Positions 1,998-45,084 of a DNA stretch of 64,000 bases are shown in pieces. The notes beneath the pieces are model-generated. The model was not told the origin of the DNA. It saw only the letters and a program-made list of their open reading frames with translations, and ran no database searches. Made by a program: the position numbers and the translations under genes. The first letter of the stretch is position 1, and the number at the start of each line of letters is the position of its first letter. This DNA is from an uncultured Gammaproteobacteria bacterium. GTDB lineage: Bacteria; Patescibacteriota; Microgenomatia; CAYFQP01. Location of the stretch: NCBI GenBank assembly GCA_964345375.1, contig CAYFQP010000034.1, forward strand, positions 65 through 64,064. The letters run 5' to 3'.

Positions 1998-3253
1998 AAA
2001 TAAGAATTTCTTTAAAAAGGGTTAGGGTTATTATTCTAGTCTTGGCTTTAATCATTCTCGCTGGTGGTTCAGGTTACTGGTTGGGTCAGCGAGAAGTTAA
2101 GGTTAGTCTGAATAGATATCGACCCCAGGTAGAGATTAAGCGCCAAGTTCCAGTTGGTAAGGAAAATCTTGATTTTTCTCTTTTCTGGGAAGTCTGGGAT
2201 CGGCTCGAAGCTAGTTATCTTGACAAAGGCGCGATTGATTATTCGAAAATGATTGAAGGTGCTATCTCAGGGATGGTCGCTTCCTTAGGTGATCCTTATA
2301 CTGTTTTCCTGCCACCTGAAGAGAATAAAAAGTCAAAAGATGATTTGGCTGGCAGTTTTGAGGGTGTTGGCATGCAGCTTGGTTTTAAGGATTCTAAAGT
2401 GGTTGTCGTTGCTCCTTTAAAAGGAACCCCAGCTGATAAAGCCGGCGTCAAAGCTGGAGATATTATCAGCCACGTTAAAGATGGGGAAAAGGGGATTGAT
2501 CAGGACATCGATAGTATGCCCTTGCCTGAGGTGGTGACGATTATTCGGGGACCAAGGGGAATGCCAATCACGATTACCTTTCTTCGAGAAGGAATCGAAG
2601 AACCTTTAGAGATTACCATTGTCCGGGGAACAATCATTATTCCCAGTGTTGAAGTTGATTTTATTGAAAAAGACAACAAAAAAGTCGCTCATTTGAAATT
2701 AAGTCGTTTTGGTGACCGGACTGATCAGGAATGGCAGGCAGCAATTAATCAGATTGTTGGTGAAAAGACAAAGACTAATTTTAAAGGCGTGGTTTTAGAC
2801 TTGAGAAATAATCCTGGCGGCTACCTTCAGGGAGCGGTCTATATTGCCAGTGAGTTTTTAAGTCAAGGGGTAGTCGTTCAACAAGAAAAAGGTGGGAATG
2901 GTGGCACCGAGACGTTTTCCGTTAATCGCCAGGGAAGATTGACAGACATTCCCTTAATAGTTTTGGTTAACCAGGGCTCAGCTTCGGCTTCAGAGATTGT
3001 GGCTGGTGCTCTTTTTGAAAGAGAAAGAGCCGAGTTAGTTGGTGAGAAAACTTTTGGCAAGGGGACGATTCAAGAAGCTGAAGACTTAAGCGCTGGTTCA
3101 GGCTTACATATTACCATTGCTCGTTGGCTTTTGCCTTCTGGAGAGAACATTGATGGTCAAGGAATTAGTCCAGACTATGAAGTAGCCATGGACGAGACTG
3201 ACCAGACAAAAGACCCTCAACTTGACAAAGCAATCGAATTGTTGTCAAAATAG
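1994..3253 (+). CDS. ctpA: S41 family C-terminal processing peptidase (CtpA-like) with N-terminal TM and PDZ domain
   Basis: Motifs GVGMQLG (PDZ), NPGGYLQGAVYIASEF and GSASASEIVAGAL (S41 catalytic Ser region), KGTIQE. Confidence 0.85.
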   Translation: MKIRISLKRVRVIILVLALIILAGGSGYWLGQREVKVSLNRYRPQVEIKRQVPVGKENLDFSLFWEVWDRLEASYLDKGAIDYSKMIEGAISGMVASLGDPYTVFLPPEENKKSKDDLAGSFEGVGMQLGFKDSKVVVVAPLKGTPADKAGVKAGDIISHVKDGEKGIDQDIDSMPLPEVVTIIRGPRGMPITITFLREGIEEPLEITIVRGTIIIPSVEVDFIEKDNKKVAHLKLSRFGDRTDQEWQAAINQIVGEKTKTNFKGVVLDLRNNPGGYLQGAVYIASEFLSQGVVVQQEKGGNGGTETFSVNRQGRLTDIPLIVLVNQGSASASEIVAGALFERERAELVGEKTFGKGTIQEAEDLSAGSGLHITIARWLLPSGENIDGQGISPDYEVAMDETDQTKDPQLDKAIELLSK

Positions 3254-3257
3254 CCAG

Positions 3258-4427
3258 ATGCCTAAAATTAAACATTATCTTATTGGTTTCGCGATTGGAG
3301 TAGTCATCATTGTTTCTGTTCTTGGTGGGGCTATCTCTGATCGACTTTTTGGTTATCGAATTTTAGATAAATTTTTCCCTCGAACTGAAGAAGGTTTTCA
3401 TCTTCCAACTGAAACTCAGCGGATTCTTCGGGAAGAGTCAGTCGTTATTGAAGTAGCTGAGAACGTTTCACCTTCAGTGGTCACCATTGGTATTAGTAAA
3501 ACCCAAAGAGTCCTTGAATTTCCTACTTTACCTGGTTTTGAATCTTTTTTTGGCTTGCCTGAGTCTGGAACAAGAGAAGAAGAGATTGAGCAAGATATTG
3601 CTACTGGTTTTATCATCACTGCTGATGGCTTGATTGTGACCAACAAACACGTTGTTGCTGACAGCCAGGCAAGGTATCGGGTGATTGCTCAGGATGATAA
3701 GACGTATGAGGTTGAGAAAATCTACCGTGATCCAGCTAATGATATCGCTATTCTGAAGATTAACGCTTCTGGTTTACCACCAGTGGAGTTAGGCGATTCT
3801 TCTAATTTAAAAGTGGGTCAGTTTGTCATTGCCATTGGCACGGCCTTAGGAGAATTTCGCCACACCGTGACGACCGGAGTTATTTCAGGCTTGGGGAGAG
3901 GCATTACGGCTGGTTCACCCTTAGAGGGATATGTTGAAGAATTAGATAATGTTATCCAGACTGATGCGGCCATTAATCCTGGCAACTCGGGTGGACCTTT
4001 ACTCAATTCGGCTGGTCAGGTAATTGGTATTAATGTGGCGGTGGCTGCAGCCGGAGAGAATATTGGTTTTGCTTTACCGATTAACATTGTTAAAGAGTCA
4101 ATCAATAATTTTAACCAAACAGGCCAATTCAGCCGACCGTTTCTGGGTATTCGTTACCGGATGATTTCTCGAGAAGCAGCAATAATGAACGAAATACCAG
4201 AAGGTGCTTACGTCGCCGAAGTGATTACTGATTCACCGGCTGAGAGAGCCGGCATTCAAGCTGGTGACATTATTACCCACCTTGATAATCAGAGATTAGC
4301 TGAAGTTGAAGGTGGTTTAGCGGTTGTTATCTCCAAAAAGAAAGTCGGTGACTCAATTAGTATTACCATCTGGCGAGACGGAGAAGAAATCAAAACGAGT
4401 GCGGTTTTAACCGAGATGGAAGGTTAA
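3258..4427 (+). CDS. htrA: HtrA/DegP family trypsin-like serine protease with C-terminal PDZ
   Basis: TNKHVV (His), DIAILKI (Asp), GNSGGPLLNSAGQVIGIN (Ser) catalytic motifs; N-terminal TM; PDZ region ITDSPAERAGIQAGDII. Start placed at MPKIKHYLIG to avoid overlap with ctpA. Confidence 0.85.
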   Translation: MPKIKHYLIGFAIGVVIIVSVLGGAISDRLFGYRILDKFFPRTEEGFHLPTETQRILREESVVIEVAENVSPSVVTIGISKTQRVLEFPTLPGFESFFGLPESGTREEEIEQDIATGFIITADGLIVTNKHVVADSQARYRVIAQDDKTYEVEKIYRDPANDIAILKINASGLPPVELGDSSNLKVGQFVIAIGTALGEFRHTVTTGVISGLGRGITAGSPLEGYVEELDNVIQTDAAINPGNSGGPLLNSAGQVIGINVAVAAAGENIGFALPINIVKESINNFNQTGQFSRPFLGIRYRMISREAAIMNEIPEGAYVAEVITDSPAERAGIQAGDIITHLDNQRLAEVEGGLAVVISKKKVGDSISITIWRDGEEIKTSAVLTEMEG

Positions 4428-5122
4428 TTACGGCCTTGAAGTAGAGAAACAATCTTTTTGAGATCGCCACCGAGAACAGCATCTAAATTCTTCCAAGATT
4501 TATTTAGTCGGTGATCTGTTACCCGGTTTTGAGGAAAATTATAAGTCCTTATCTTTTCAGCTCGCATCCCTCGGCCAATGGCGGAGCGATAGTTTTGGAT
4601 TTCTTCTTCCCTTTCTTCTTCCTCTTTTTGGAAGAGTTTTGATCTTAAAATTTCTAAGGCAATTTGCCGATTTTGTTCTTGACTTCTTTCGGCTTGGGAG
4701 GTGACTGTAATTCCAGAAGGGTTGTGTTTTAATCTCACTGCGGTGGCTACTTTATTAACAAATTGACCACCAGGGCCTGAAGAGCGGAAAGTTTGGAGTT
4801 CTAAATCCTGGGGATTAATCTTAATCTTTGTTTCTGGGATTTCAGGTAAGACCGCCACGGTTGCGGTTGAGGTGTGGATTCGACCATAACGCTCGGTTTT
4901 CGGCACGCGTTGAACTCGGTGAACACCAGCTTCGGATTTTAGTTTTTTAAAAGCATCAGGGCCAGTGATTTTAATCACGCCTTCGTCAATTTCGCTGACC
5001 TGCCATTTTTGAGAATTGGCAAAGCGGGTATACATTCTTAATAAATCATCAGCCCAGATTTTAGCTTCATCACCACCAGCTCCTGGCCGAATCTCTAAGA
5101 TGACTTTATTGGAGTCTTTCAT
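4424..5122 (-). CDS. prfA: class I peptide chain release factor, RF1-type (PKT = PxT motif, GGQ), lacking N-terminal domain 1
   Basis: RVQRVPKTERYGRIHTSTATVAVLPE (PxT decoding motif), RSSGPGGQFVNK (GGQ), RTYNFPQNRVTDHR. Only 232 aa; the start ATG directly follows the rpmE stop (TAAATG), so there is no room for domain 1. Confidence 0.75.
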   Translation of the reverse strand: MKDSNKVILEIRPGAGGDEAKIWADDLLRMYTRFANSQKWQVSEIDEGVIKITGPDAFKKLKSEAGVHRVQRVPKTERYGRIHTSTATVAVLPEIPETKIKINPQDLELQTFRSSGPGGQFVNKVATAVRLKHNPSGITVTSQAERSQEQNRQIALEILRSKLFQKEEEEREEEIQNYRSAIGRGMRAEKIRTYNFPQNRVTDHRLNKSWKNLDAVLGGDLKKIVSLLQGRN

Positions 5123-5482
5123 TTATTCTTTCTCTTTTCTAGCCTTTTTCTGAGGAGCGGTTTTCTTCTTCTCCTTAGTTAACATTTCCTTAAGAGTCTT
5201 GGGTCTGGCTTTTTCGGCTTTCTTTTCTTGAAGTTTCTTCAATCTTCTTCTTTCTTTTTTCTTGACATATTTTTTACCAGCCACTTTTTCTCTTTTAATT
5301 TGGAACTTTTCTACCTGACCAGCTTCATCAACATACTTCATTTCGCCAGTAAAAAAAGGATGACAATGAGAGCAGATTTGAACTTTAATTTCTGGTTCAG
5401 TTGAGCCGACTGTAAAAGTATGGCCACAAGAGCAAGTGACCTTAGCTTCTGGATACCACTGAGGATGAGTTTTAGTTTTCAT
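5123..5482 (-). CDS. rpmE: 50S ribosomal protein L31 with ~50-aa Lys/Glu-rich C-terminal extension
   Basis: MKTKTHPQWYPEAKVTCSCGH...CSHCHPFFTG L31 zinc-ribbon core (~65 aa) followed by a KKYVKKKERRRLKK... tail. Confidence 0.85.
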   Translation of the reverse strand: MKTKTHPQWYPEAKVTCSCGHTFTVGSTEPEIKVQICSHCHPFFTGEMKYVDEAGQVEKFQIKREKVAGKKYVKKKERRRLKKLQEKKAEKARPKTLKEMLTKEKKKTAPQKKARKEKE

Positions 5483-7721: not shown

Positions 7722-9059
7722 TTAACTTCTTTCATTATACAAGACATAAATTTTCGGGAAGGGATCGAAACCCTTAGATTTCAAACCAGCATCTATAGTT
7801 GAATTGCGACGGGTTGATTCGTTCCAGGCGATGATCACATTATCACCAAGCATTTCCCTGATTATTAGTCCCTCAGCCGCATATTGACGAATGTATAATT
7901 TGGAAAAAGATTCGAGAAAGGGTTGAAGTTCAGGGCCAAAGGTGGAGCTTTTAGTAATAATTTCCATTTCGGTATCGACAATGTTTTGAGGAAGAAATGG
8001 TAGGAGCTCTTCGATTGAGATATCATCAAACAATCGAATTAATCTTCTGAAACGCTCTTTACCGAGGAATTCGGAAACGGTCCAAACAATAATCTTCCCC
8101 TTGCCCAGTTCTCTGTTAAGGCGCTCCTGGACGTATCTTGCGTAGCTCGCTATTTCTTCCATTGTTTTTTGTTCACCGTCTTTTTTCAGGCAATAAGGAT
8201 ATAGACAATAGGGATTATCGTCGGCCACAAGCTTGAGGTACAAAAAAGGAACCCCTGTTCTTTCAAATGCTCTAATAAGTTTTTTTTCAAGATTGAGGCG
8301 AGGAAGGAGGAGGTAGTCCTTCTCAAAACCTGCCTTTTGATTTATTCCTAGATAACTCCTCCATATACCCGAGGCGTCAGGAGCCAGTTTCCTTGGGGTA
8401 CTGGCTGGACAAATCCAGTTTATTACTATGAAGGGATCTCTGGTTAAAACCGCTTGAGTAGCGAGCTCTTTAATTTTAGAAGGCCTTTGTGGAGACATAA
8501 CTGATGAGGAACTGAGAATATCGAGTAGTTTGCTGCTCTTCTCACCAGCCTCTTTCATTCCTTGTCTGGTAGCCTTTATCTGAGGGCCCCTGGCTTTACT
8601 CATCCATCTAATTTCAAATTTTCTTTTCATTTCGTCACGAGCTTTTTTCCTTCCTTGACTCTTCTGTTCAGAGACTTCTTCATCGCTTTTAAGTCGAAAC
8701 CTTACTCTTTCCATTTGATATTTTGCTGTTAAGTTATCAGCTTTTCTTCGTGTTGTTTTGGGTACTGAAGAATTAGGAAATTGAGGTCTCCTTTGAAATC
8801 TCTGTCTTTCTTTTTGAATTCCACTGATAATTTTATCTCTCCTTTTAGAGGGAGAGGGGGTTTGGACCTCTTTTAGCCATTTTCTAGGATCTTGATTGAC
8901 CAATCCAATTGGGGAAGCGATTGAATCTGGTGAAATGAGGTATTTTATGACCGGCATTGGTGGCAAGCCAGTGATTCGACACATTTCTAATACCATAAAT
9001 GTTGGTGATATCATTCCAGCCTCAAACCAACGGTTGGCCTCTTCATTTATTGTTTGCAT
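7722..9059 (-). CDS. hypothetical protein; highly basic low-complexity N-terminal half, conserved-looking C-terminal half
   Basis: 445-aa ORF between hisS and tRNA-His; no recognisable motifs. Confidence 0.45.
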   Translation of the reverse strand: MQTINEEANRWFEAGMISPTFMVLEMCRITGLPPMPVIKYLISPDSIASPIGLVNQDPRKWLKEVQTPSPSKRRDKIISGIQKERQRFQRRPQFPNSSVPKTTRRKADNLTAKYQMERVRFRLKSDEEVSEQKSQGRKKARDEMKRKFEIRWMSKARGPQIKATRQGMKEAGEKSSKLLDILSSSSVMSPQRPSKIKELATQAVLTRDPFIVINWICPASTPRKLAPDASGIWRSYLGINQKAGFEKDYLLLPRLNLEKKLIRAFERTGVPFLYLKLVADDNPYCLYPYCLKKDGEQKTMEEIASYARYVQERLNRELGKGKIIVWTVSEFLGKERFRRLIRLFDDISIEELLPFLPQNIVDTEMEIITKSSTFGPELQPFLESFSKLYIRQYAAEGLIIREMLGDNVIIAWNESTRRNSTIDAGLKSKGFDPFPKIYVLYNERS

Positions 9060-9374: not shown

Positions 9375-10139
9375 TTATTCCTCTTCCTCAGGAGTGGGGG
9401 AAGCTTTAGGAGTAGGGATAATCTCTTCTTCTGTTTCAGCTGATAGAAGACGGATAAGGGTAGCGGCAATCGTTTTGTTTTCGTTCTCTAGGGTGCCAAC
9501 AACAACCAAGCGATCACCAATTTCCAGATCTTTGAATCCAATCTCTTCAGTTTCTTCATCAATCTTTTGATTGATTTCTGTTTTAGCAGTGACTTCAATT
9601 TCATAAGTCACTTCTTCTTTTAGAGTGTTGAGGCTAATGATTTCTTCTTCTTGGCTGAGATCAGCGATTGTTCCATAAACTGCTTCTCTTACTTCAGTTG
9701 GTTCAGGCTCTTCAGCCAGGACCGAAATTCTTTTACCAGTCAGAATATCTTCTTCTAAATAACCCATGGCAATAATAAAGTCTTCAATTTCTAAGTCATT
9801 AATCTCAATCGCTTGGTTACTCTTACCAATAAAAGTCGTCTCGTCATCGGTCTTGACAATCTCTTCTTTTTCTTGATATTCAAGTATTAGAGTCGAGTTG
9901 CTAATATCAGTTAAATTGCCAAAGAAGGCGCCCTTCCTTGAGCCTGATTCTTTGATGGCTTCGATTCTTTCCTGAACTTTTTCTTTGATTTCTGGACTGA
10001 TTTCTTCTTCCTCTTCTGCTGGAGTTGGGGTTGGGGTTTGGGCAAGTGACTTTGTTAGTAAGAGAGAACCGACGACAAAGAAAGAAGCAAAGAGAATAAG
10101 AATGAATTTTAGGTATTTTTTATTGTTGATTCCTTTCAT
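9375..10139 (-). CDS. membrane-anchored/secreted acidic protein with PT-rich linkers
   Basis: N-terminal TM/signal (LKFILILFASFFVVGSLLL) then PTPTPAEEEEE linker; C-terminal PTPKASPTPEEEE. Start set at MKGINNKK to avoid overlapping the upstream gene. Confidence 0.5.
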   Translation of the reverse strand: MKGINNKKYLKFILILFASFFVVGSLLLTKSLAQTPTPTPAEEEEEISPEIKEKVQERIEAIKESGSRKGAFFGNLTDISNSTLILEYQEKEEIVKTDDETTFIGKSNQAIEINDLEIEDFIIAMGYLEEDILTGKRISVLAEEPEPTEVREAVYGTIADLSQEEEIISLNTLKEEVTYEIEVTAKTEINQKIDEETEEIGFKDLEIGDRLVVVGTLENENKTIAATLIRLLSAETEEEIIPTPKASPTPEEEE

Positions 10140-10140
10140 T

Positions 10141-10569
10141 TTAGATTTCTGCGGTTGAATAAACAATGTTGACAGTCTTACTGGTTTTTTCTCCCTCAGG
10201 ACTAAAAGCAATAACTTGGATTTCATTAATACCCCTGATTAAACCAATCTCAGTGGCAAAACTACCGTTCTCATCAGCTTCAATGATTTTCTCTCCTCTC
10301 TCAGTAGCAATAATAATAATCGCTTCAGGCACAGATGAGCCTTTAAACTCGATTTCACTGGTATCAACCAGAGCATTTTCTTCTGGCGAACTAATGTCCA
10401 GAGAAATTCCTATAGGTGTAGGAGTTGGCTCTAAAGTTTCGGCGGCTTCTTGTTCAGGAGGAGCTTCTCTTTTAGTCTGAATGGCTTTGTTAGCAGTCCA
10501 AATTCCGAAGGTAATCAAGAGACCAAGGGCAAATCCAATGACAATGGCAATCAGGATTTCCTTTTTCAT
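10141..10569 (-). CDS. small membrane-anchored protein with PT linker (paralogous architecture to the downstream gene)
   Basis: MKKEILIAIVIGFALGLLITFGIW TM, then EPTPTPIG linker and a ~90-aa domain. Confidence 0.5.
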   Translation of the reverse strand: MKKEILIAIVIGFALGLLITFGIWTANKAIQTKREAPPEQEAAETLEPTPTPIGISLDISSPEENALVDTSEIEFKGSSVPEAIIIIATERGEKIIEADENGSFATEIGLIRGINEIQVIAFSPEGEKTSKTVNIVYSTAEI

Positions 10570-12633: not shown

Positions 12634-13152
12634 TTGAGTGAGAGAAGAAGAGAAGACTTGGCTGACGAAGGACTCGATCAAGCCTTTGAAGAAGGACTTA
12701 AATGGCTAAATTCATTATCAGTTAGAATGGGAATTCGCGAGTCCGATGTAGTTGTTGTGATTGGCGGTGGAACGTATGTTGAAGGAATGGGTTTAGGTCC
12801 AAAAAAAGTTAAGGGCGTGAGACTGTTTTCAGTTAATTTAAGATTTTCTAATGGAACGACTGAGAACTACTCGATTTCTTCAGAAACCGGCTTATTATCG
12901 GTCGAAAGAAGAGGCGATTTACAGATGGACACAATGATATTGGGAAAACTGCCGATTCGGGGAATCCGCAAACTTTCTGGTTGTCCTAATAGTTGGGGAT
13001 GGGAGACAATTGAGGAGGGTCGTTATGAGCTGGTTTATAATGAGCCTCGTGCAGATTTTAGCAATGAGGGTGTACTACAATCTGATGAAGTTAAGGAGAG
13101 AAAGATTAGAGCTTTAGAGGTTATCTCTTGGCTAGGAAGAAATTTTACCTAA
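12634..13152 (+). CDS. hypothetical protein (TTG start, strong SD GGAGGAGGTGG)
   Basis: 172-aa ORF with a good upstream Shine-Dalgarno, unusual in this window, and locally higher GC. No recognisable family. Confidence 0.45.
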   Translation: MSERRREDLADEGLDQAFEEGLKWLNSLSVRMGIRESDVVVVIGGGTYVEGMGLGPKKVKGVRLFSVNLRFSNGTTENYSISSETGLLSVERRGDLQMDTMILGKLPIRGIRKLSGCPNSWGWETIEEGRYELVYNEPRADFSNEGVLQSDEVKERKIRALEVISWLGRNFT

Positions 13153-16765: not shown

Positions 16766-17224
16766 TTGTCCTTTATCCTTAAGGCAAGAATGTTGACTTG
16801 GGAAAAAAGAAGAATTGTCATTTTTAGTCTCTTGTTGTTTTTTTTCACATCCCTTCTTTCTTTAGGAGTCCTTTATTGGTATACCGATGGTGAATTGTGG
16901 AATTATGAGGTAGGAAAGTTGAGAATAAAAAAGAAAGGAATATATACTTATGTTCAGTCTGAGGAAATGGGAACAGACAGGTTTCTTCAGGGAACGATTA
17001 CAGAGGCACATACTGACGGCTCATTTTCCCTAAGAGTTAAAGATTCAGATAGAATAATAAACCTTATTTTAAAACAAGGAGCAACTCTTTTTAGTTGGCA
17101 AGAGGGAGAAAATCAAGCACATCATGGCGAAGAACTCGAATTGGGAGATCAAGTTTTGGTTTCTGGTATCTCCGAATTAAGCAAAGATCAAATCGAAGTA
17201 AGTCGGATAACTGTTTTAAGATGA
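16766..17224 (+). CDS. hypothetical membrane-anchored protein
   Basis: N-terminal TM (IVIFSLLLFFFTSLLSLGVLYW); the stop overlaps the next start (ATGA). Confidence 0.4.
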   Translation: MSFILKARMLTWEKRRIVIFSLLLFFFTSLLSLGVLYWYTDGELWNYEVGKLRIKKKGIYTYVQSEEMGTDRFLQGTITEAHTDGSFSLRVKDSDRIINLILKQGATLFSWQEGENQAHHGEELELGDQVLVSGISELSKDQIEVSRITVLR

Positions 17225-17760
17225 AGACTTTCTTTTTATTTATTATTGGAATTTTCACTTTTGGCTTAATTCTTGGTCTTCAAACCTCACCGGTTTTGAG
17301 TCAATGTCCTGCTAGTTGTCAACTTTTAGGTTGTGCACCGTGGGGAGAACCCTCTTGTACTTGTAATACTTGTTGCGGAAAAACAGAATGTAGCGGAGGA
17401 ACTTGTTGCGTCTACGATTGTCCTCCAGGATCTTGCGGTTGTTTTTTAGGAGAGACAGAGATAGACACAGAAAACTCCAAGACTCAAAAACTCCAAATAA
17501 AAGACTTTAAAGAAGGCGAAGTTATTTCTTCATTTGATCCGGAAACAGGAGAGATATCTGAAGGAGAAGTTACTGATGTGAGTGATTTAATAAGAGAAGG
17601 ATATTATGAATTGGAAACCGAGAGTGGGAAGAAGGTTAAGGTGACCGGAGAACACCCGTTCCTGGCTGTTAAAAAAGAGAGTTCTTATCATTCAAGGTTT
17701 AAACTACAGTTAGATAAGCTCCTTTCCTCCATTCAGAATAAATTAAGTAAAATATTTTAA
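17221..17760 (+). CDS. secreted Cys-rich protein with Hint (Hedgehog/intein-like) N-terminal half
   Basis: Signal peptide MKTFFLFIIGIFTFGLILGLQTSPVLS; 14 Cys in CPASCQLLGCAPWGEPSCTCNTCCGKTECSGGTCCVYDCPPGSCGC; then CFLGETEID... (intein block A) and KVKVTGEHPFLAV (block B TxxH). The ORF stops about 30 aa later, so the C-terminal Hint blocks are absent. Confidence 0.6.
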   Translation: MKTFFLFIIGIFTFGLILGLQTSPVLSQCPASCQLLGCAPWGEPSCTCNTCCGKTECSGGTCCVYDCPPGSCGCFLGETEIDTENSKTQKLQIKDFKEGEVISSFDPETGEISEGEVTDVSDLIREGYYELETESGKKVKVTGEHPFLAVKKESSYHSRFKLQLDKLLSSIQNKLSKIF

Positions 17761-25052: not shown

Positions 25053-25862
25053 ATGCATTCTGAAAAAAGTGAAAGAGTCCCAGAGTCTGAGGAGTTGGAG
25101 CCTCGGAAAATCATTTTAGATAAAGTTATTCCTGTTATTTCCTCTTATATTGAGCAGTTGTCAAATGACCCTTCCGAGTTAGCTCAGGAACGTGATTATC
25201 TTCTTGGAGAAATGTCTCGAAAAGATCTTGAGAGAAACAATGCGAATTTAAAGCGCCTCCAAGAATTTTTAAGAAAATTCGCAGATAATCCTGATGAGTT
25301 TAGGCTCACTTTTAGAAACGATCGCACGAATCCATTTAAGCATACATACTTGCTTTCCCTAAGGGACCCAGAAGACCCGCCGGAGTTCTCAACCAATTCT
25401 GATTTACCAGACACGGAATTTAATATCCAACTAGTTCTTCTTAAAAAAGAGGCTCCAGAATTAAGTGAGGGTAAAGAGGAAAGATTGAGATCTTTAGGGC
25501 GTAATGTTCCTCCTGAAAGGGCATTGGAAAGATCCCAAGAACAAGCTCCTAAGGAAATGACCCTTTATTTGACAGCCACTCAGGTTTATTGGCAAAAAAG
25601 AGAGCGAGGACCTAGTCTGGTGCCAGGACAAGACCATATCAGGCGAATCAATTATGAATCCGGAGTTGCTCTTTGTTGGTCTTCTCAAGAAGGCTCCCTC
25701 TCTTATGGTGTATTTTATTTAGGAGCGACCCCCCATTATTCGCGAATCTATGAAGAGACGAAAATTAGCCAAAAAGAATGTAAAGTTTTAAAAGATTTTT
25801 TCCTCCAACATTTTGAAAAAAGAAACCAGGAAAGAATTCCTTCCCAGAAATTCAGAAGCTAA
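25053..25862 (+). CDS. hypothetical protein
   Basis: 269-aa charged protein downstream of the recombinase; no known motif. Confidence 0.5.
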   Translation: MHSEKSERVPESEELEPRKIILDKVIPVISSYIEQLSNDPSELAQERDYLLGEMSRKDLERNNANLKRLQEFLRKFADNPDEFRLTFRNDRTNPFKHTYLLSLRDPEDPPEFSTNSDLPDTEFNIQLVLLKKEAPELSEGKEERLRSLGRNVPPERALERSQEQAPKEMTLYLTATQVYWQKRERGPSLVPGQDHIRRINYESGVALCWSSQEGSLSYGVFYLGATPHYSRIYEETKISQKECKVLKDFFLQHFEKRNQERIPSQKFRS

Positions 25863-31847: not shown

Positions 31848-33611
31848 ATGGCTGCCCAGACTGCCCAGGCTACTCAAGTTACCCAGGCTGGTAACACTCC
31901 GGCTAAAAACCTGGCTGATATCCTTGTTAAACAAGGAGCTCTTAAGGCTGATCAGGCCGAAAAAGTGAAACTTGAGAATATTAATACTGGTAAGCCGGTT
32001 GAGGAAATTGTTGCTAAGGATAAACTTGTTTCTGAAGAGGCTTTAATTAAGGCCAAGGCTGAATTCTACAACGTTTCTTTTGTTAACTTAATGGAAACCC
32101 CCTCTTCTCCCGAAGCCTTGGCTTTGATCCCAAAATCAGTGGCTGAGGCGAATAATCTCATTCCCTTTGCTCTTGATAAGAAAAAGAATGAACTTTCGGT
32201 TGCCCTGGTTAATCCTCTTGATTTGGAAATCATTGAGTTTATTGAAAAGAAATCCGGGGCCAAAATCAAACCCTTCATGGCTTCTCCCAGTCAGATTAAG
32301 GCGGCCATTGCCGAGCGCTACGGAGTTGGTTTAACGACCGAGGTGACAGCGGCCTTAAAAGAAGCGGTTCCCGAAGTGACGCCAACGAAGACGGTGGATA
32401 TCAAAAAATTGGGTGAGGTTATTCGGGAGGCACCAATTGCCAAGATTGTTTCTACTTTGCTTGAGTTTGCCATGCGGAGTCGAGCTTCGGATATTCACAT
32501 CGAGCCAGAAGAGGGTAAAACCCGAGTCAGGTATCGGATTGATGGCATTATGCACGAGAAATTAATTCTGCCTAAAACAGTCCACGAAGCCCTTGTTTCT
32601 CGGATTAAGATTCTTTCAGGAATGAAGATTGATGAAAAACGGTTACCTCAAGACGGCCGTTTTAATTTCCGGGCTGATGGTGATGAGGTCGATTTGCGGG
32701 TCTCTTGTTTGCCAACGGTTCATGGCGAGAAAATGGTCATGAGGCTCTTGAAAAAAACCGGTGGTGTGCCTGATTTGCCTGAGCTAGGTTTAAGAGGTCG
32801 GGCCTTAAAGCAGGTTGAAGAAGCGATTACCAAACCAGTAGGTATTATCCTTGTTTGTGGACCAACTGGTTCTGGAAAAACAACGACTCTTTATTCAATC
32901 ATTCAGCGAATTAATTCTACCCGAGTCAACATTATCACTCTTGAGGATCCAGTCGAATATCAAATTGCTGGCGTTAATCAGGTTCAGGTTAATCCCAAAG
33001 CCGGTTTGACTTTTGCTTCTGGTCTGCGGTCTTTTGTTCGTCAAGATCCAGACATTATTCTTGTGGGTGAAATTCGGGATAAAGAAACAACCGAACTGGC
33101 AATTCAGGCCTCTCTGACTGGCCATTTAGTTTTCTCGACTCTTCACACTAATTCAGCGGCTGGCGCTCTTCCCCGTTTACTAGATTTAGGAGCTGAACCC
33201 TTCTTATTAGCTTCCTCAGCCTCAGCCATTCTTGGTCAGCGAGTTTGTCGCCGGGTTTGCCCTTATTGTCGCCAAGAATTCGAGCCTTCAGAACAGCTAG
33301 TGGCTGATATCAAGAAGGTTTTAGGCCAGTTATTTGATGAAAAAAAATATGGTCCAGGTTTTAAAATGGTCAAAGGTAAAGGCTGTCAGGAGTGTAATAG
33401 CTCTGGTTATCTAGGTCGGGTGGGAATTTTTGAAGTCCTACCAGTAACCGAAAAAATCGGCCGTTTGATTTTAGAAAGTACCCCCGCTAGCAAAGTCGAA
33501 CAGCAAGCGGTTGAAGAAGGAATGGTTACGATGAAACAGGATGGATATTTGAAATCTTTGGAGGGAATTACTACTATAGAAGAAGTCCTTCGGGTTGCCG
33601 AAGTAAGTTAA
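31848..33611 (+). CDS. pilB: type IV pilus assembly / T2SS ATPase PilB/GspE
   Basis: N-terminal GSPII_E_N domain, Walker A VCGPTGSGKTTTLY, Asp/His boxes, tetracysteine CPYC...CQECNSSGY. Confidence 0.9.
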   Translation: MAAQTAQATQVTQAGNTPAKNLADILVKQGALKADQAEKVKLENINTGKPVEEIVAKDKLVSEEALIKAKAEFYNVSFVNLMETPSSPEALALIPKSVAEANNLIPFALDKKKNELSVALVNPLDLEIIEFIEKKSGAKIKPFMASPSQIKAAIAERYGVGLTTEVTAALKEAVPEVTPTKTVDIKKLGEVIREAPIAKIVSTLLEFAMRSRASDIHIEPEEGKTRVRYRIDGIMHEKLILPKTVHEALVSRIKILSGMKIDEKRLPQDGRFNFRADGDEVDLRVSCLPTVHGEKMVMRLLKKTGGVPDLPELGLRGRALKQVEEAITKPVGIILVCGPTGSGKTTTLYSIIQRINSTRVNIITLEDPVEYQIAGVNQVQVNPKAGLTFASGLRSFVRQDPDIILVGEIRDKETTELAIQASLTGHLVFSTLHTNSAAGALPRLLDLGAEPFLLASSASAILGQRVCRRVCPYCRQEFEPSEQLVADIKKVLGQLFDEKKYGPGFKMVKGKGCQECNSSGYLGRVGIFEVLPVTEKIGRLILESTPASKVEQQAVEEGMVTMKQDGYLKSLEGITTIEEVLRVAEVS

Positions 33612-33617
33612 AAACAA

Positions 33618-34676
33618 ATGGAAATTAGAGAATTACTGAAAATTACTTTAGACCGCAACGCCTCTGACCTCCACCTCTTGGTGGGCATTCCTCCGGCCCT
33701 GAGAATTGATGGAGTTTTGACTTTATTAACTGATTATCCTGCCCTGAATCAAAATATGATTCAGGAATTGGTTAATTCTCTTCTCAATCAGGAACAAAAA
33801 GAAATTCTTAATGTTAATCGGGAATTAGATTTCTCTTTTGAATTAGAAGGTCAGGCTCGTTTCCGGGTTAATGCTTACCACCAGAGGGGCACTTTGGCGG
33901 TTGCCCTTCGGTTGATTCCTTTAAAGATAAGGAATATCGAAGAATTAAAATTACCTCAGATCTGCCATCGCTTTGCTGAACTGAAACAAGGCTTTATTCT
34001 CATCACTGGTCCGACTGGGCACGGTAAGTCAACCACCTTGGCGGCCATCTTAAATGAGATTAACACCAAACGAGCTGAGCACATTGTCACGATTGAAGAT
34101 CCGATTGAATTCATTCTTCCTCAAAGCAAGTCAATTGTTTCCCAAAGAGAAATTCATGCTGACACCCATTCTTGGGAAATTTCTCTTCGGTCTTGTTTAC
34201 GAGAAGATCCGAACGTAGTTCTCGTTGGTGAGATGAGGGATTATGAAACCATTGCTGCCGCCTTAACGATTGCTGAAACCGGCCATTTGGTTTTTGCCAC
34301 CCTCCATACCAACTCTGCTGCCCAGACAATTGACCGAATTGTTGATGTTTTTCCTGAACACTCCAAAAGTCAAGTAAGAATGCAGCTCGCTTTTACGATT
34401 GAGGCCGTCTTTTCTCAGCGGTTGATTCCTTGTTTAAAAGGCGGTAGGGTAGTGGCGACCGAGGTAATGGTTGCCACTCCAGCCATTCGGACTTCTGTTC
34501 GAGAGGGCAAGACCCACATGATTGATAACATCATCCAAACTTCAAGAGAATTGAGCATGTGGACGCTAGAGACCGACCTAGCCCGGTTAGTCAAAGAGGG
34601 AGAAGTGAGCTTAGAGACAGCCAAGGCCTATGCTCTTCGCCCAGAAGATCTTATCAGACAGGTTAGGGGCAAGTGA
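33618..34676 (+). CDS. pilT: twitching motility retraction ATPase PilT
   Basis: ITGPTGHGKSTTLAAIL Walker A, IVTIEDPIEF, LVGEMRD, ATLHTNSAAQTIDRI. Confidence 0.9.
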   Translation: MEIRELLKITLDRNASDLHLLVGIPPALRIDGVLTLLTDYPALNQNMIQELVNSLLNQEQKEILNVNRELDFSFELEGQARFRVNAYHQRGTLAVALRLIPLKIRNIEELKLPQICHRFAELKQGFILITGPTGHGKSTTLAAILNEINTKRAEHIVTIEDPIEFILPQSKSIVSQREIHADTHSWEISLRSCLREDPNVVLVGEMRDYETIAAALTIAETGHLVFATLHTNSAAQTIDRIVDVFPEHSKSQVRMQLAFTIEAVFSQRLIPCLKGGRVVATEVMVATPAIRTSVREGKTHMIDNIIQTSRELSMWTLETDLARLVKEGEVSLETAKAYALRPEDLIRQVRGK

Positions 34677-35878
34677 GAAAATTTAACTATAAAGCCAAAG
34701 ATAAACAAGGAAAGACCGTTAAAGGCGTGGTTGAGGCCGCTGGTGAGAAGCAAGCGGCTAAAGTTCTTCGAGATAAAGGTTTGGTTCCAATCTCCTTGAG
34801 TTTTTCTAAGAGAGATATTTTTAAGGTTATCTCTGAACGGTATTTTCAACGAATTGGTTTGGCTGAGCTCGCCACTTTCACCCGTCAGCTTTCAACCATG
34901 GTGACTGCTGGTTTGACCGTGGCTGATGCCCTCCGGATTCTTAAAGAGCAATCTTCACCTAAGTTTGGCCATGTGATTGATGATGTTCTCAGATCAGTTG
35001 AGGGTGGTGCCACCTTGGCTGAGTCATTGGAGAACCACCCTCGAGTTTTTGGTGAAGTCTATATCGCCCTGGTTCGTTCAGGAGAAGCGGCTGGTGTTTT
35101 GGATGAAGTTTTATCAAGATTGGCTGAGAATTTAGAAAAAGAACGAGAATTTCGGAATAAAGTTAAGGGAGCAATGATCTATCCAGTGGTGATTATTGTT
35201 GGGATGGTCGCCGTAGGCGGGATTATGATGGTTTTTGTCATCCCTAAGCTTTTAGGACTCTACCAAGAATTTGAGGCCGAGTTACCCATGGCGACTAAAA
35301 TCCTGATTACCATTTCTAATTTAGCCACTCGTTTCTGGTGGATCACTCTTTTAATTATTGTGGTGGCTGTTTTTTCCTTAAGAAACTTTCAAAAAACACC
35401 AGTCGGCAAGAAAAAGATTGATCGGTTAAAAATTCAGTTACCCGTGGTTGGCGGCTTGATAAAAATGTCCATCATGGCGGAAATGACCAGAACCTTGGGT
35501 CTCTTAGTTGGCACTGGCATCTCGATTATCGACGCCTTAACAATTGTTTCTCGGGCCGTAGGCAACTCGGTTTATGAAGAAGAGCTCCAAGTGGCGGCTG
35601 ACAGAGTTGAAAAAGGTTTGCCTTTAGGTGGAACCTTAGCTGAATACGAGGACTTTCCTCCAGTTGTTCCCCACATGGTTTCAGTGGGCGAAGAAACCGG
35701 CAAGCTAGATGAAGTTCTGACCAAACTCTCTCAATATTTTGAGTCAGAATCAGAGCAGATGGTTAAAGGCTTGACAACCCTCATCGAGCCCCTTATCATG
35801 GTAGTCTTAGGACTAGGAGTTGGTTTTTTGATTATTGCTGTAATTTTACCAATTTATAATTTGACGACATCATTTTAA
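34673..35878 (+). CDS. pilC: type IV pilus / T2SS platform protein PilC/GspF
   Basis: Two GspF repeats with a 3-TM topology; typical length of 401 aa. Confidence 0.85.
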   Translation: MRKFNYKAKDKQGKTVKGVVEAAGEKQAAKVLRDKGLVPISLSFSKRDIFKVISERYFQRIGLAELATFTRQLSTMVTAGLTVADALRILKEQSSPKFGHVIDDVLRSVEGGATLAESLENHPRVFGEVYIALVRSGEAAGVLDEVLSRLAENLEKEREFRNKVKGAMIYPVVIIVGMVAVGGIMMVFVIPKLLGLYQEFEAELPMATKILITISNLATRFWWITLLIIVVAVFSLRNFQKTPVGKKKIDRLKIQLPVVGGLIKMSIMAEMTRTLGLLVGTGISIIDALTIVSRAVGNSVYEEELQVAADRVEKGLPLGGTLAEYEDFPPVVPHMVSVGEETGKLDEVLTKLSQYFESESEQMVKGLTTLIEPLIMVVLGLGVGFLIIAVILPIYNLTTSF

Positions 35879-35901
35879 GAGAAAGGGGGTGAAAAAAAGA
35901 G

Positions 35902-36543
35902 ATGAAGACTGCCCGTTTTTTAATGGCAAAAGGTTTTACCTTGGTTGAGCTTTTGATTGTTATTGCTCTAATTGGGATCTTGGCGGTGGCTATTTTGGCG
36001 GCCATTAACCCCTTAGAGCAGCTTAATCGAGCCCGGGACACAGGGATGGAATCAGACGCCTCTCAGCTTTTGGCAGCGATTGACCGATATTACGCTGCTC
36101 ATGAAGAGTTCCCTTGGACAACAGTCAGTGAGGATGATGCGGTTATGACTGACATCAGTGGAGAGGATACAATTGGATTTATTTCCGCCCAAGATCCTCT
36201 GATCGGAGTTTGTGATACTACTGGATGTGGAGATCAAGGCGTTCTCCTTGTTAACCTTGAGCTAAAATCAGAGTTTTTGAGGAGGAATTTTATTCTTGCT
36301 ACCCAGCCGGTTGACATGCTCTACTTAGGCAAAGATGAAGGCGCTTCTAGCTCGGTTTACGCTTGTTGGGTGCCTCGGTCTTTAGCTAAGAGACAAAGCT
36401 CATCCGTAAGTCTTACAGGCACTGAAGGAACCGAACCTTATGGACTAGACGACAATGTTTGTGATCCCAACGCAACAGGCACTGACTTTACTGATGTTAC
36501 AAAAGCCTGTTTGTATTGTGTTCCTGGTGCTCCAGTTTGGTAA
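35902..36543 (+). CDS. type IV pilin (prepilin with class III signal; candidate major pilin)
   Basis: MKTARFLMAKG|FTLVELLIVIALIGILAVA with Glu+5; located between pilC and pilD; C-terminal Cys pairs. Confidence 0.75.
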   Translation: MKTARFLMAKGFTLVELLIVIALIGILAVAILAAINPLEQLNRARDTGMESDASQLLAAIDRYYAAHEEFPWTTVSEDDAVMTDISGEDTIGFISAQDPLIGVCDTTGCGDQGVLLVNLELKSEFLRRNFILATQPVDMLYLGKDEGASSSVYACWVPRSLAKRQSSSVSLTGTEGTEPYGLDDNVCDPNATGTDFTDVTKACLYCVPGAPVW

Positions 36544-36643
36544 GGCGAGATTTTTTTGATAACAACTAGGCAGTTATCATTTGGGGAGTTGAAGTGTAAA
36601 GATGAGTTAATAGTCGAAAAATTGGTGGGGAAATATTAGTGAA

Positions 36644-37432
36644 GTGGCTTTATTTTTTTTTCTTTTTATTTTCGGCTTGGGTTTGAGCATTGGCTCATTC
36701 TTAAATGTCCTCATTTATCGCCTACCCCGGTCGATTCCATTAACAGGTCGTTCTTTCTGTCCTAGGTGTAAAAAAAAGATTTCTTGGCAAGATAATTTTC
36801 CTTTATTGTCTTTCATCTTTTTAAGAGGAAAGTGTCGTCATTGCCACTCCCCTATTTCCTGGCAATATCCAGTGGTAGAGTTTTTAACCGCCTTTCTTTT
36901 TTTCTTAACTGCTTTCTGGGTCTTTAAGCAAAACCCTGATTTAACCTTGTTAACCCCCCAATATTACTTAATCCTTGGCTACTACCTTTTTCTTTTTTCA
37001 GCCTTAGTGGTAATTTTTTTCACTGATTTATTCCAACAAATTATTCCTGATCAAGTTGTCTATCCGGCAATGGTAATCAGCCTAATAGGTGGCTTTTTCC
37101 TTGATGGAATTCAAAGATATAATCTTCTCTCAGCCCTAGGAGGAGGTCTTTTCTTTCTCTTCCTCCATTTGATTACTAAGAAGAAAGGAATGGGTTCGGG
37201 TGATATAAAATTAGTTGTCTTAATGGGATTGATTCTTGGTTTTCCTAAGATTGTCCTTGCTTCATACTTAGCTTTCTTGACAGGTGCTCTGGTAGGTGTC
37301 ATACTGATTTTAGCAAAAAAAAAGAAGTTTGGGGAGCATATTCCCTTTGGCCCGTTTCTAGCTGGGTCAACGATTATTGCCCTTTTTTGGGGTGAAGAAT
37401 TAATTAAATGGCTGACTGCCCGCTTATTTTAA
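36644..37432 (+). CDS. pilD: prepilin peptidase PilD (A24 family)
   Basis: CPRCKKKI...CRHCHSPI zinc finger, 8 TM, catalytic Asp regions (TDLFQQIIPD; GMGSGDIKL). Confidence 0.85.
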   Translation: MALFFFLFIFGLGLSIGSFLNVLIYRLPRSIPLTGRSFCPRCKKKISWQDNFPLLSFIFLRGKCRHCHSPISWQYPVVEFLTAFLFFLTAFWVFKQNPDLTLLTPQYYLILGYYLFLFSALVVIFFTDLFQQIIPDQVVYPAMVISLIGGFFLDGIQRYNLLSALGGGLFFLFLHLITKKKGMGSGDIKLVVLMGLILGFPKIVLASYLAFLTGALVGVILILAKKKKFGEHIPFGPFLAGSTIIALFWGEELIKWLTARLF

Positions 37433-38046
37433 AAAGGAAAAAACCTCAAGGAATCTCCCTGACTGAATTATTAATCGTTGTCGCCGTTATTGCTGTTCTA
37501 ATCCTGGCTCTGATTGCTGCTTTTAAACCTTGGACCCAGCAAGCTAAAGCCCGCGATGCTCAGCGAAAAGCTGATCTTCAGAAGATTAAGGCTCCCCTTG
37601 AAGATTATTATAATGATAATAATTGCTACCCCTATCCAACTCTTGATGATTTGGTTCCCGATTATATTGGTGAGAAACCAACCGATCCGGAAACAGGCGA
37701 AGATTATATTTATATTCCAGACCCAAATTGCAATTTCTACCAGATTTATACTAGACTAGAATATATCAATGATCCAGAGATTATCGAGGTCGGTTGTGGA
37801 GCTGGTTGCGGGCCAGGAGGAGATGATGGCACTTGTGAATATAATTATGGGATTTCGGGTGGTGGAGAGAGCCTAGAATGTTGCACGGCACCTGAAGACA
37901 TCTGTCCGTTTGGTGGAAGACCCTGGGTGGCCCCGCCTGATTGTGAAAACCCAGGCGACTATTGTGGGAAACCGACCTGTTGTTATCAAAACTGGGTTAT
38001 GGTTTGTGACGGAGAGGAATATTGGTGTTGTCAACCTGAAGAATAA
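37408..38046 (+). CDS. pilin-like protein with Cys-rich C-terminal domain
   Basis: KRKKPQG|ISLTELLIVVAVIAVL prepilin N-terminus; ARDAQRKADLQKIKAPLEDYY GspG-like helix; 14 Cys in the last ~85 aa. Confidence 0.65.
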   Translation: MADCPLILKRKKPQGISLTELLIVVAVIAVLILALIAAFKPWTQQAKARDAQRKADLQKIKAPLEDYYNDNNCYPYPTLDDLVPDYIGEKPTDPETGEDYIYIPDPNCNFYQIYTRLEYINDPEIIEVGCGAGCGPGGDDGTCEYNYGISGGGESLECCTAPEDICPFGGRPWVAPPDCENPGDYCGKPTCCYQNWVMVCDGEEYWCCQPEE

Positions 38047-38048
38047 TA

Positions 38049-38579
38049 ATGAAATTAAAAAAGCTTAAAGTTAAAAACCAAAAACACGGTTTTACTTTAG
38101 TTGAACTGTTGGTAGTGATGGCCATTCTCGCCATTTTGGCGACTGTCACTTTAGCCAATTTCCGAACTTCTCAAATTAAAGCCCGCGATGCCCAGAGAAA
38201 ACATGATTTACGCCAGATTGTTAATGCTTTAGAGGCCTATTTTAGTGATCATAATGGCTATCCAGAGGCCAGTAATGGAAAAATCATGGCTTGTGGTTGT
38301 CAAGATCCAGGACTGGCTTGTGGTTGGGATGATCCTGTTGGTCAACGAGAGTTTTGTGATGGTAATAACACTGTTTACATGGCTAAAGTTCCTGGTGACC
38401 CTCTTTCGGATCCTAATCACTCCTATTGCTATCAATCTGATGGAAATTACTTTAAACTTTATGCTATTCTAGAAAATGAGAAAGACCCAGAAGCAACGAT
38501 TGAGGTCACCTGTGCTGGTAAAGACTATAATTTTGGCCTTGCCAGCCCGAACGTGCCTTTAGTTGAGGAGGAAGAATGA
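38049..38579 (+). CDS. pilin-like protein (GspG/PulG-like pseudopilin)
   Basis: KHG|FTLVELLVVMAILAILA, KARDAQRKHDLRQIVNALEAYFSDHNGYP. Confidence 0.7.
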   Translation: MKLKKLKVKNQKHGFTLVELLVVMAILAILATVTLANFRTSQIKARDAQRKHDLRQIVNALEAYFSDHNGYPEASNGKIMACGCQDPGLACGWDDPVGQREFCDGNNTVYMAKVPGDPLSDPNHSYCYQSDGNYFKLYAILENEKDPEATIEVTCAGKDYNFGLASPNVPLVEEEE

Positions 38580-38668
38580 AAAAACTGATTAATAACTTTG
38601 GTTTTACCCTGATTGAACTCTTGGTCGTCATCTCGATTATTGGCATTTTAGCCACCCTCTTGATTGCT
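38576..38668 (+). repeat. 93-nt segment identical to 39068-39160 (first 31 codons of two adjacent pilin genes)
   Basis: Direct comparison of the sequence: 93/93 identity starting exactly at each ATG, with divergence immediately afterwards. Confidence 0.85.
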
Positions 38669-39064
38669 AATCTTGGTGGGATAAGGGAAAGGGCCCGAGA
38701 TGCTCAGAGAAAGAATGATCTCAATCAGATTCAGAAAGCGTTAGAGATGTATAAAAATAGTCAGGACCCGCCTACTTATCCAGCTGATGGAATTGACAGC
38801 CTAATGGATACCTTAAAAGCTAAAAACTTTGTCCAAGATGAATTGCATGACCCAAAATGTACTTATAATTCTGATGACGATCTTTGGGAATGTACTGGCG
38901 ATTGGCCTGATTATAGTTATGATTTAGATCCAGAAGACATGGGTGATGATTTGACTTACGAACTAGTTGTTTGCCTAGAGAATCCCTCTGACCCCCAGGC
39001 AGATAGCAGTCTCCATTCTGATTGTTCTGGAGCAGGAGGTAGTATTTCCAGGAGGGAACCCTAA
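38576..39064 (+). CDS. pilin-like protein (paralog A)
   Basis: MKKLINNFG|FTLIELLVVISIIGILATLLIA; ERARDAQRKNDLNQIQKALEMY. Confidence 0.7.
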   Translation: MKKLINNFGFTLIELLVVISIIGILATLLIANLGGIRERARDAQRKNDLNQIQKALEMYKNSQDPPTYPADGIDSLMDTLKAKNFVQDELHDPKCTYNSDDDLWECTGDWPDYSYDLDPEDMGDDLTYELVVCLENPSDPQADSSLHSDCSGAGGSISRREP

Positions 39065-39067
39065 AAG

Positions 39068-39160
39068 ATGAAAAAACTGATTAATAACTTTGGTTTTACC
39101 CTGATTGAACTCTTGGTCGTCATCTCGATTATTGGCATTTTAGCCACCCTCTTGATTGCT
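39068..39160 (+). repeat. second copy of the 93-nt pilin N-terminal repeat
   Basis: Identical to 38576-38668. Confidence 0.85.
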
Positions 39161-39565
39161 CGTTATGGGATGGCTGAAAAAAGTGCTCGAGACACAGAGA
39201 GAAAATCTGATTTGAATCAATACCGGATTGGCCTTGAGAATTTTGCTTCTCAGACAGGTGGTCTTTACCCTGCCCGGCCTTCTCGGGGTGATGCTTCAGA
39301 CGGAGAGCCTTGCGATGCACTTACCAGTGATGATTATCTTTCTCAGTGTCCTCAAGATCCCCGCCAGGAAGAGGATGAAACGACTTACCTTTACCTTTAT
39401 CATTCAAATGGGACTGCAGGTGAAAGTGACGCCACTAATTATATTCTCTGGGCGAGATTAGAAACAGGGACTCAACCTCATCATCATTGGTATGTTTGTG
39501 CTGATGGCCGGGCTGGTGAGAAACAGGGGCCGGCACCAAGTTTAGCCGATGATTGCGGTGGCTAA
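39068..39565 (+). CDS. pilin-like protein (paralog B)
   Basis: Identical N-terminal 31 aa to the preceding gene, then a divergent C-terminus (SARDTERKSDLNQYRIGLENF...). Confidence 0.7.
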   Translation: MKKLINNFGFTLIELLVVISIIGILATLLIARYGMAEKSARDTERKSDLNQYRIGLENFASQTGGLYPARPSRGDASDGEPCDALTSDDYLSQCPQDPRQEEDETTYLYLYHSNGTAGESDATNYILWARLETGTQPHHHWYVCADGRAGEKQGPAPSLADDCGG

Positions 39566-45083: not shown

Positions 45084-45084
45084 A

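Follow-up and report, generated by a model that had tools for sequence, protein, structure and literature searches.

The 64-kb window analysed here, i.e., the whole stretch of 64,000 nucleotides from contig CAYFQP010000034.1 (positions 65 to 64,064), carries on its minus strand the gene prfA, coding for peptide chain release factor 1 (RF1). The gene directly follows rpmE, which codes for ribosomal protein L31, and converges with an htrA-like protease gene. Its product lacks the N-terminal helical domain 1 (~105 residues) found in ordinary RF1. The following features were determined at the locus:

4424..5122, minus strand: prfA, RF1 without domain 1 (domains 2, 3 and 4 only), a 232-amino-acid (aa) open reading frame (ORF) with ATG start and TAA stop.
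4856..5119, minus strand: part of codon-recognition domain 2, residues 2-89, the C-terminal half of Pfam PCRF (PF03462 positions 97-194 of 194, E 2.6e-36).
5063..5077, minus strand: GGDEA, residues 16-20, the RF1-type tip of helix alpha-5 (first stop-codon base), read base by base as ggtggtgatgaagct.
4895..4903, minus strand: PKT, residues 74-76, the RF1 PxT 'tripeptide anticodon', read base by base as ccgaaaacc.
4763..4771, minus strand: GGQ, residues 118-120, the peptidyl-tRNA hydrolysis motif, read base by base as ggtggtcaa.
4508..4834, minus strand: Pfam RF-1 domain, residues 97-205, i.e., domain 3 and the start of domain 4 (PF00472 positions 2-116 of 116, E 4.3e-39).
5120..5125, minus strand: TAA-ATG junction of the rpmE stop and the prfA start (the plus strand reads cat, then tta).
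5123..5482, minus strand: rpmE, ribosomal protein L31 of 119 aa, extended at its C-terminus by a Lys-rich stretch (NCBIfam L31, E 1.5e-23, residues 1-66 only).
3222..4427, plus strand: htrA-like serine protease (Pfam Trypsin_2 and PDZ), convergent with prfA and part of the conserved syntenic frame.

The rpmE stop codon TAA (5123-5125) is followed directly and in frame by the prfA ATG, with no spacer. At the other end of the gene, the stop codons of prfA (minus strand) and htrA (plus strand) overlap at 4424-4427 (TTAA), leaving no intergenic room for a terminator. An earlier note on this DNA, made from the sequence alone, had described a 232-aa RF1-type factor with PKT and GGQ motifs, which begins at the equivalent of about residue 108 of Escherichia coli RF1 and whose ATG directly follows the rpmE stop in the same frame, so that no domain 1 could be encoded upstream. 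Our results confirm this description: RF1 was matched at 325.6 bits, the motifs were read base by base, the alignment begins at residue 107 of the E. coli protein, the junction reads TAAATG, and a search for domain 1 (see below) was negative. The gene end that the note had given, 5125, needs correction, as prfA ends at 5122 and the positions 5123-5125 are the rpmE stop. The gene had also been called the only release-factor-like gene of the window, and this holds: tblastn searches with E. coli RF2 and other RF2 proteins matched the prfA locus only, and family scans together with tblastn detected no prfB, prfC, prmC or second prfA within the 64 kb.

Comparison with the NCBIfam models of class-I release factors, proposed in the same note as a check for RF1, RF2 and PrfH, placed the protein with RF1, ahead of RF2, PrfH and ArfB. 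The RF1 models PRK00591 and TIGR00019 (prfA) gave 325.6 bits (E 3.5e-97, profile positions 101-338 of 347) and 316.8 bits (profile positions 109-347 of 361), respectively, vs. 228.5 bits for the prfB model TIGR00020 (whose own cut-off of 370 was not reached), 80.6 bits for the PrfH model TIGR03072 (cut-off 166.65; the match is limited to residues 97-194, the GGQ domain) and 49.5 bits for the ArfB model (cut-off 100). In Pfam, the protein covers positions 97-194 of the 194 of PCRF and the whole RF-1 domain. Structure comparison equated residues 3-226 with residues 107-342 of E. coli RF1 (5j30_QY), and residues 4-228 with residues 85-320 of Thermotoga maritima RF1, with an identity of 52-54%; identity to solved RF1 structures ranged from 45 to 54%. 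RF1 entries of the PDB (200-260 bits) were matched better than bacterial RF2 entries (135-166 bits).

The residues that read the stop codon are also those of RF1. The tripeptide is PKT and not the RF2-type SPF, and in an alignment of 62 sequences G16, G17, E19, P74, T76 and the GGQ motif are invariant; the 43 invariant columns of this alignment include the RF1 reading elements. Among the best 120 protein clusters, GGQ was present in all 120 and PxT in 118, most often as PKT (41), PQT (29), PET (14), PTT (13), PVT (8) or PAT (6). An AlphaFold2 model based on the 62-sequence alignment had a predicted local distance difference test score (pLDDT) of 81 and a predicted template-modelling score (pTM) of 0.71. 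Its closest structure was the compact crystal form of T. maritima RF1, 1rq0 (query-normalised TM 0.82, root-mean-square deviation 3.1 A), and it also superposes on free RF2 structures. The modelled fold of a class-I factor is made up of domains 2-3-4 and has no further element. Domain 2 itself is ~10 residues shorter than in ordinary RF1, at residues ~38-54, and the distance from the core start to GVHR is 57 vs. 67 residues. As this deletion is common to short, reduced and full-length RF1 of the Microgenomates type, it is older than the loss of domain 1. We also observed that in RF1 proteins from candidate-phyla-radiation bacteria (CPR; loci L004-L050 and L093-L193) GGQ is followed by N, F, S or Y in place of the usual H (GGQNVQKV, GGQNVNKV, GGQFVNK). 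GGQN is likewise present in some RF2 proteins from metagenome samples, e.g., the Chloroflexi RF2 of L161, whose GGQNVQKVSTAVRLTH is the same as in Microgenomates RF1.

There is no room for domain 1 upstream of the prfA start, because rpmE fills that DNA. For domain 1, we derived a hidden Markov model (HMM) from 92 full-length RF1 proteins, using their N-terminal regions, and ran it against six-frame translations. Each full-length RF1 locus of CPR bacteria was matched at E 1e-14 to 1e-31, and the 'reduced' loci described below at 1e-10 to 3e-4. There was no match in the 64-kb window (best E 4.6, i.e., noise), nor within ~20 kb around ~20 short-form genes of relatives. In every short-form locus, in-frame stop codons stand just upstream of the start.

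The position of the gene is that of the housekeeping prfA. Irrespective of the RF1 class (full-length, reduced or short), rpmE lies directly upstream of prfA in 43 of 46 CPR loci; the gene upstream of the window prfA is likewise rpmE and no member of the rtcB family. On a 1.118-Mb contig of a Gottesmanbacteria genome (JACPKY010000002.1, assembly GCA_016186795.1), the order hisS-EamA-rpmE-prfA (235 aa) / htrA, ctpA ... rpsR-ssb-rpsF is identical to that of the window. One related sequence, P0112, is a full-length RF1 of 345 aa with a recognisable domain 1 that is 66% identical over the core, and its slot matches the window, with an rpmE carrying the same long basic tail upstream and htrA/ctpA...ssb/rpsF downstream. 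The htrA neighbour was also seen beside the Gottesmanbacteria RF1 and beside the full-length RF1 of L004. Given the rpmE adjacency and the identical gene order around full-length and short forms, the short genes are positional orthologs of prfA. The earlier argument that rpmE-prfA synteny marks a housekeeping RF1 and not a PrfH-type factor is thereby supported by the 43 of 46 loci and the P0112 slot, and also by the PrfH score of 80.6 bits. The gap between rpmE and prfA, 0 nt in the window, varies from -4 to +61 nt in relatives, in any frame. The in-frame TAAATG junction is incidental, since the two genes are out of frame in 8 of the 13 short-form loci of the Microgenomates type. The small gaps point to tight operon coupling rather than a conserved fusion.

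The L31 encoded upstream has a C-terminal Lys-rich extension of ~50 aa in the window (the L31 model covers residues 1-66 of 119). L31 is 95-112 aa long in all Microgenomates-type loci as well as in L030, L033 and L034, and 69-79 aa long in the majority of the remaining CPR loci whose RF1 is full-length. The long tail is not strictly linked to domain-1 loss, being present also beside the full-length RF1 of L004 and L033. We considered whether the tail could be a stand-in for domain 1 and rejected this because of its presence beside full-length RF1.

Genes of the short form gave ratios of nonsynonymous to synonymous substitution rates (dN/dS) of 0.016-0.075 for pairs with unsaturated dS (0.12-1.26), and by this measure the short form is under strong purifying selection. 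The stop codons of 230 genes from short-RF1 loci (TAA 63%, TGA 20%, TAG 17%) are used in proportions similar to those of full-length-RF1 loci, and the window has 43 TAA, 11 TAG and 9 TGA stops. As TAG stops are in use, RF1 activity is required; as TGA stops are in use, an RF2 must be encoded elsewhere in the genome. Each of 55 CPR loci, inspected with ~20-kb flanks, contained a single release factor gene, as did the window. A genome scan found no assembly with two RF1 matches, and none of the contigs among the 240 clusters listed carried both a long and a short form; both of these are weak tests. With a DNA pattern specific for RF2, HRLVRxSPFDxxx[RK]RHTSF, we obtained 22 viral and 120 metagenome loci. 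No domain-1-less RF2 was present among their 5'-complete RF2 ORFs, all of which had at least 105 residues before the core, which serves as a background rate for the loss, and no RF2 recognisable as that of a CPR bacterium was found in these pattern loci. Two candidates for a CPR RF2 were rejected: a ponA-prfB adjacency similar to the tyrS-ponA region of the window, whose neighbouring genes look alphaproteobacterial, and the RF2 of L161 with its Microgenomates-like GGQNVQKVSTAVRLTH, which turned out to be from Chloroflexi/Anaerolineae.

The short form is not a peculiarity of a single contig. Among the best 120 clusters (65-85% identical), 119 have a length of 225-251 aa, so the truncated architecture that the earlier note proposed to look for in related genomes is indeed present there. 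The named sources of short clusters are Shapiro-, Gottesman-, Woese-, Microgenomates-group and Patescibacteria bacteria. Data with one genome per species yielded 50 loci, and we took the stretch between the start codon and the conserved core (..E.R.G.GG.EA) as the N-terminal length. Four length classes were distinguished: 5-13 residues (~20 loci); 24 residues (L017 and P0123); 70-85 residues (L015, L016, L019-L022, L024, L027, L028 and, counted from its ATG, L050); and 107-121 residues, which is ordinary RF1. Proteins of the 70-85-residue class keep positions ~52-107 of the 115 of the domain-1 HMM, i.e., the second half of domain 1. When P0112 was used as query, this reduced class of 281-325 aa proved to be a large family too (Levy-, Daviesbacteria and others, annotated as 'PCRF domain-containing protein'), and the fully full-length relatives were few (~20 clusters). 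The organism titles of many CPR contigs (L006, L008, L014-L022, L047) are implausible, e.g., 'uncultured Gammaproteobacteria/Pseudomonadales bacterium', 'Bathyarchaeia archaeon' or 'Pacearchaeota archaeon', and are unusable for taxonomy. Two entries, P0121 and P0125 (477 and 481 aa, with two release factor matches each), might suggest a new architecture, yet they contain an exact internal duplication of ~120-130 residues and are most likely assembly artefacts.

In a neighbour-joining tree of the core, the 24-residue form is nested in the clade of 70-75-residue forms with 99% bootstrap. This form is an already reduced gene that was truncated further. The short forms L025, L030, L034 and P0128 have no domain-2 deletion and their nearest relatives are full-length; on these grounds, domain 1 was completely lost in at least two lineages independently. 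The deep nodes of the tree have bootstrap values below 50, and we dropped the counting of losses beyond two from it; the two results that hold are the nesting of the 24-residue form (99%) and the split between loci with and without the domain-2 deletion (distance of 57 vs. 67). A wider picture can be drawn, which we consider evenly balanced between belief and doubt: domain 1 of RF1 would have been eroded repeatedly and stepwise (~110 to 70-85 to 24 to none) in Microgenomates and at least one other CPR lineage, and whole clades would terminate at UAA and UAG with a three-domain RF1 unable to use the bL12/uL11 stalk handle. Their termination cycle would then need no stalk-assisted recruitment and probably no RF3, and RF2 may have undergone the same erosion.

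The window protein resembles several known systems and differs from each of them. With canonical RF1 (PrfA; TIGR00019 / PRK00591) it shares domains 2, 3 and 4, the PxT loop, the GGxE helix tip, GGQ, the switch-loop region (EKIRTYNFPQNRVTDHR), the compact fold (as modelled) and the genomic slot of the full-length prfA of CPR bacteria; unlike canonical RF1, it has no domain 1, a domain 2 that is ~10 residues shorter, and a score under the equivalog cut-off. Its truncation point is essentially equal to that of engineered E. coli RF1 and RF2 without domain 1, as far as these are described in the papers that cite them, but the latter are laboratory constructs in a fast-growing host with RF3, whereas the window form is natural, conserved in its lineage and under purifying selection. 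PrfH (RFH; TIGR03072, RtcB-associated) is likewise a class-I homologue that naturally has no domain 1 and keeps GGQ, so that the absence of domain 1 is not diagnostic alone. In PrfH, however, the codon-recognition residues are altered and an rtcB-like gene always precedes, whereas the motifs of the window protein are those of canonical RF1 and rpmE precedes. Only the GGQ domain is common with ArfB, ICT1 and C12orf65 (49.5 bits to ArfB); those proteins have no codon-reading domains 2 and 4 and carry a basic C-terminal tail, whereas domains 2 and 4 are complete in the window protein. The 'reduced' RF1 of other Microgenomates (281-325 aa; Levy-, Davies- and Amesbacteria) shares the clade, the rpmE synteny, the 10-residue domain-2 deletion and a GRGMRAEK-type switch loop, but keeps the second half of domain 1 (HMM positions ~52-107 of 115), of which the window protein has nothing.

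Taken together, we consider it likely that a bacterium of the Microgenomates group (CPR/Patescibacteria) has here its orthologous, functional, housekeeping prfA, from which domain 1 was deleted in evolution. Several points weigh against this conclusion. The window protein scores under both NCBIfam RF1 equivalog cut-offs (325.6 vs. 400 for PRK00591; 316.8 vs. 423.25 for TIGR00019), because profile positions 1-100 are missing, and the NCBI annotation of such proteins is 'release factor-like' or 'PCRF domain-containing'. A second, full-length prfA may lie elsewhere in the genome, as the search covered the 64-kb window and the ~20-kb flanks of relatives. RF2, RF3 and PrmC of short-RF1 genomes were not found within the stretches searched (the window and the loci of relatives). 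Expression and release activity are predicted, and the kinetic consequences are extrapolated from E. coli.

The chief alternative is that the gene encodes a specialised paralog, i.e., a rescue or auxiliary factor similar to PrfH or ArfB, and that a normal full-length prfA elsewhere performs housekeeping termination. We regard this as unlikely. PrfH, the known kind of natural class-I factor that has no domain 1, is indeed accessory (PMC1586002), the sub-cut-off RF1 score would suit such a factor, and the search for a second prfA covered the window and the locus flanks. However, the PrfH match is far below its cut-off (80.6 vs. 166.65 bits) and confined to the GGQ domain, ArfB reaches only 49.5 bits, the codon-reading motifs are canonical for RF1 and conserved, and the gene follows rpmE and no rtcB, in the exact slot that the full-length prfA occupies in related CPR genomes. 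The two weak tests mentioned above, that no assembly has two RF1 matches and that no contig among the 240 clusters listed has a long and a short form, argue in the same direction. Very unlikely, in our view, is a split gene whose domain 1 is made as a separate small protein and associates in trans. Such a split is structurally conceivable, as the helical bundle of domain 1 is attached loosely and, in complexes with the ribosome, often disordered; yet the domain-1 HMM was negative in the six-frame translation of the window and in ~20 kb around ~20 short-form genes, and the graded N-terminal lengths (~110, 70-85, 24 and 5-13 residues) resemble erosion and not fission.

An artefact, be it a wrong start, faulty assembly or sequencing, or a pseudogene in decay, would be a natural suspicion for a metagenome-assembled contig, the more so as some database RF1 entries are clearly mis-assembled (P0121, P0125). 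It is effectively refuted by the identical 232-aa protein on three contigs from NCBI and Logan assemblies, the occurrence of the same architecture in more than 100 independent clusters, the in-frame stops just upstream in every short locus and the dN/dS far below 1, and we give it almost no credence. The same frame of rpmE and prfA without a spacer, along with the unusually long basic tail of L31, could also suggest that readthrough of the in-frame TAA yields an L31-RF1 fusion in which L31 takes the place of domain 1. This is hardly believable, as the gap in relatives runs from -4 to +61 nt with a varying frame (8 of 13 short-form loci of the Microgenomates type are out of frame) and the long L31 tail also stands beside full-length RF1 in L004 and L033.

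For the domain-1-less housekeeping RF1, which we thus prefer, the retained parts allow a mechanism to be proposed. The protein retains all elements for reading UAA and UAG and for peptidyl-tRNA hydrolysis, namely domain 2 with GGDEA and PKT, domain 3 with GGQ, and domain 4. It would bind to the A site at UAA or UAG and recognise the codon through GGDEA and PKT; a switch from the compact to the open form would then bring GGQ into the peptidyl-transferase centre, and the peptide would be released as by ordinary RF1. There would be no domain-1 handle for recruitment by the C-terminal domain of bL12 and by uL11, and binding would probably be slower, which a slow-growing organism with a small genome could tolerate. 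Exit from the ribosome would probably occur by spontaneous dissociation or subunit rotation. Translation of prfA is probably coupled to that of rpmE, and UGA stops would require a separate RF2 whose gene lies elsewhere in the genome.

Data from E. coli are consistent with such a mechanism. According to Mora et al. (2003, Mol Microbiol 50:1467), as cited in PMC1586002, engineered E. coli RF1 and RF2 deprived of domain 1 still release peptides in a codon-specific manner in vitro, and the truncated RF1 is functional in vivo. Cryo-electron microscopy showed that domain I of RF1 is mobile and that the C-terminal domain of bL12 bridges this domain and uL11, aiding RF1 delivery (Graf et al., 2018, PMC6076264); depletion of bL12 impairs RF1 function (PMC6076264). 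The earlier note had stated that domain 1 contacts RF3 and the L7/L12 stalk. The stalk part agrees with the bL12 bridge; the RF3 part is weaker than stated, as an RF1-RF3 contact was not seen (Graf et al., 2018, PMC6076264) and RF3 reportedly recycles RF1 lacking domain I (Mora et al., 2003, as cited in PMC6076264). Orthologs of prfC were not identified in small genomes (PMC1586002). A link of domain-1 loss to the absence of RF3 is plausible, although it is not mechanistically required. In the literature, which we covered incompletely, we found on natural housekeeping RF1 or RF2 without domain 1 and on release factors of CPR bacteria nothing beyond PrfH and the engineered truncations, which is absence of evidence only.

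A large, conserved natural family of domain-1-less RF1, together with the intermediates in sister lineages, amounts to a natural deletion experiment on translation termination. The role of domain 1 is debated, the proposals being stalk/bL12-assisted recruitment, interplay with RF3, or binding kinetics. To our knowledge, bacterial RF1 and RF2 are regarded as universally possessing this domain, and we know of tests of its role only with engineered E. coli truncations. CPR bacteria already have reduced ribosomes. The family could be used to determine the contribution of domain 1 in vivo, to define the minimal class-I release factor, and to trace co-evolving changes of uL11, bL12, RF3 and RF2 in CPR bacteria. 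From the E. coli work, one can predict how the truncated core behaves biochemically; a recurrent, clade-wide loss with intermediates is not what a specialist would assume. The annotation names 'release factor-like' and 'PCRF domain-containing', which arise because the scores fall under the model cut-offs, could be misread as absence of RF1.

Elsewhere in the window, the trigger factor gene (61483-62352, minus strand) encodes 289 aa, in which Trigger_N spans 4-124 and Trigger_C 147-286; the part between them gave no match to a peptidyl-prolyl isomerase domain. It seems to be a second ribosome-associated factor of the window with domain loss. A long type IV pilus-like cluster occupies 31848-45792 on the plus strand, with PilB-, PilT- and PilC-like ORFs named by size and gene order; about ten of its ORFs carry GFTLIELL, an N-terminus of the prepilin type, and the sole family-library check of the cluster gave a weak PilO match. 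At 17095-17760 (plus strand) we noted a 221-aa ORF with weak, sub-threshold Hint/intein-splicing matches (E 4e-6 and 8e-6), for which a host extein is not obvious. Five ORFs of 172-445 aa gave no Pfam match: 7722-9059 and 9375-10226 on the minus strand, and 1212-1997, 12634-13152 and 25053-25862 on the plus strand. One of these, the 261-aa ORF at 1212-1997, lies upstream of ctpA, and its position is conserved in Gottesmanbacteria.

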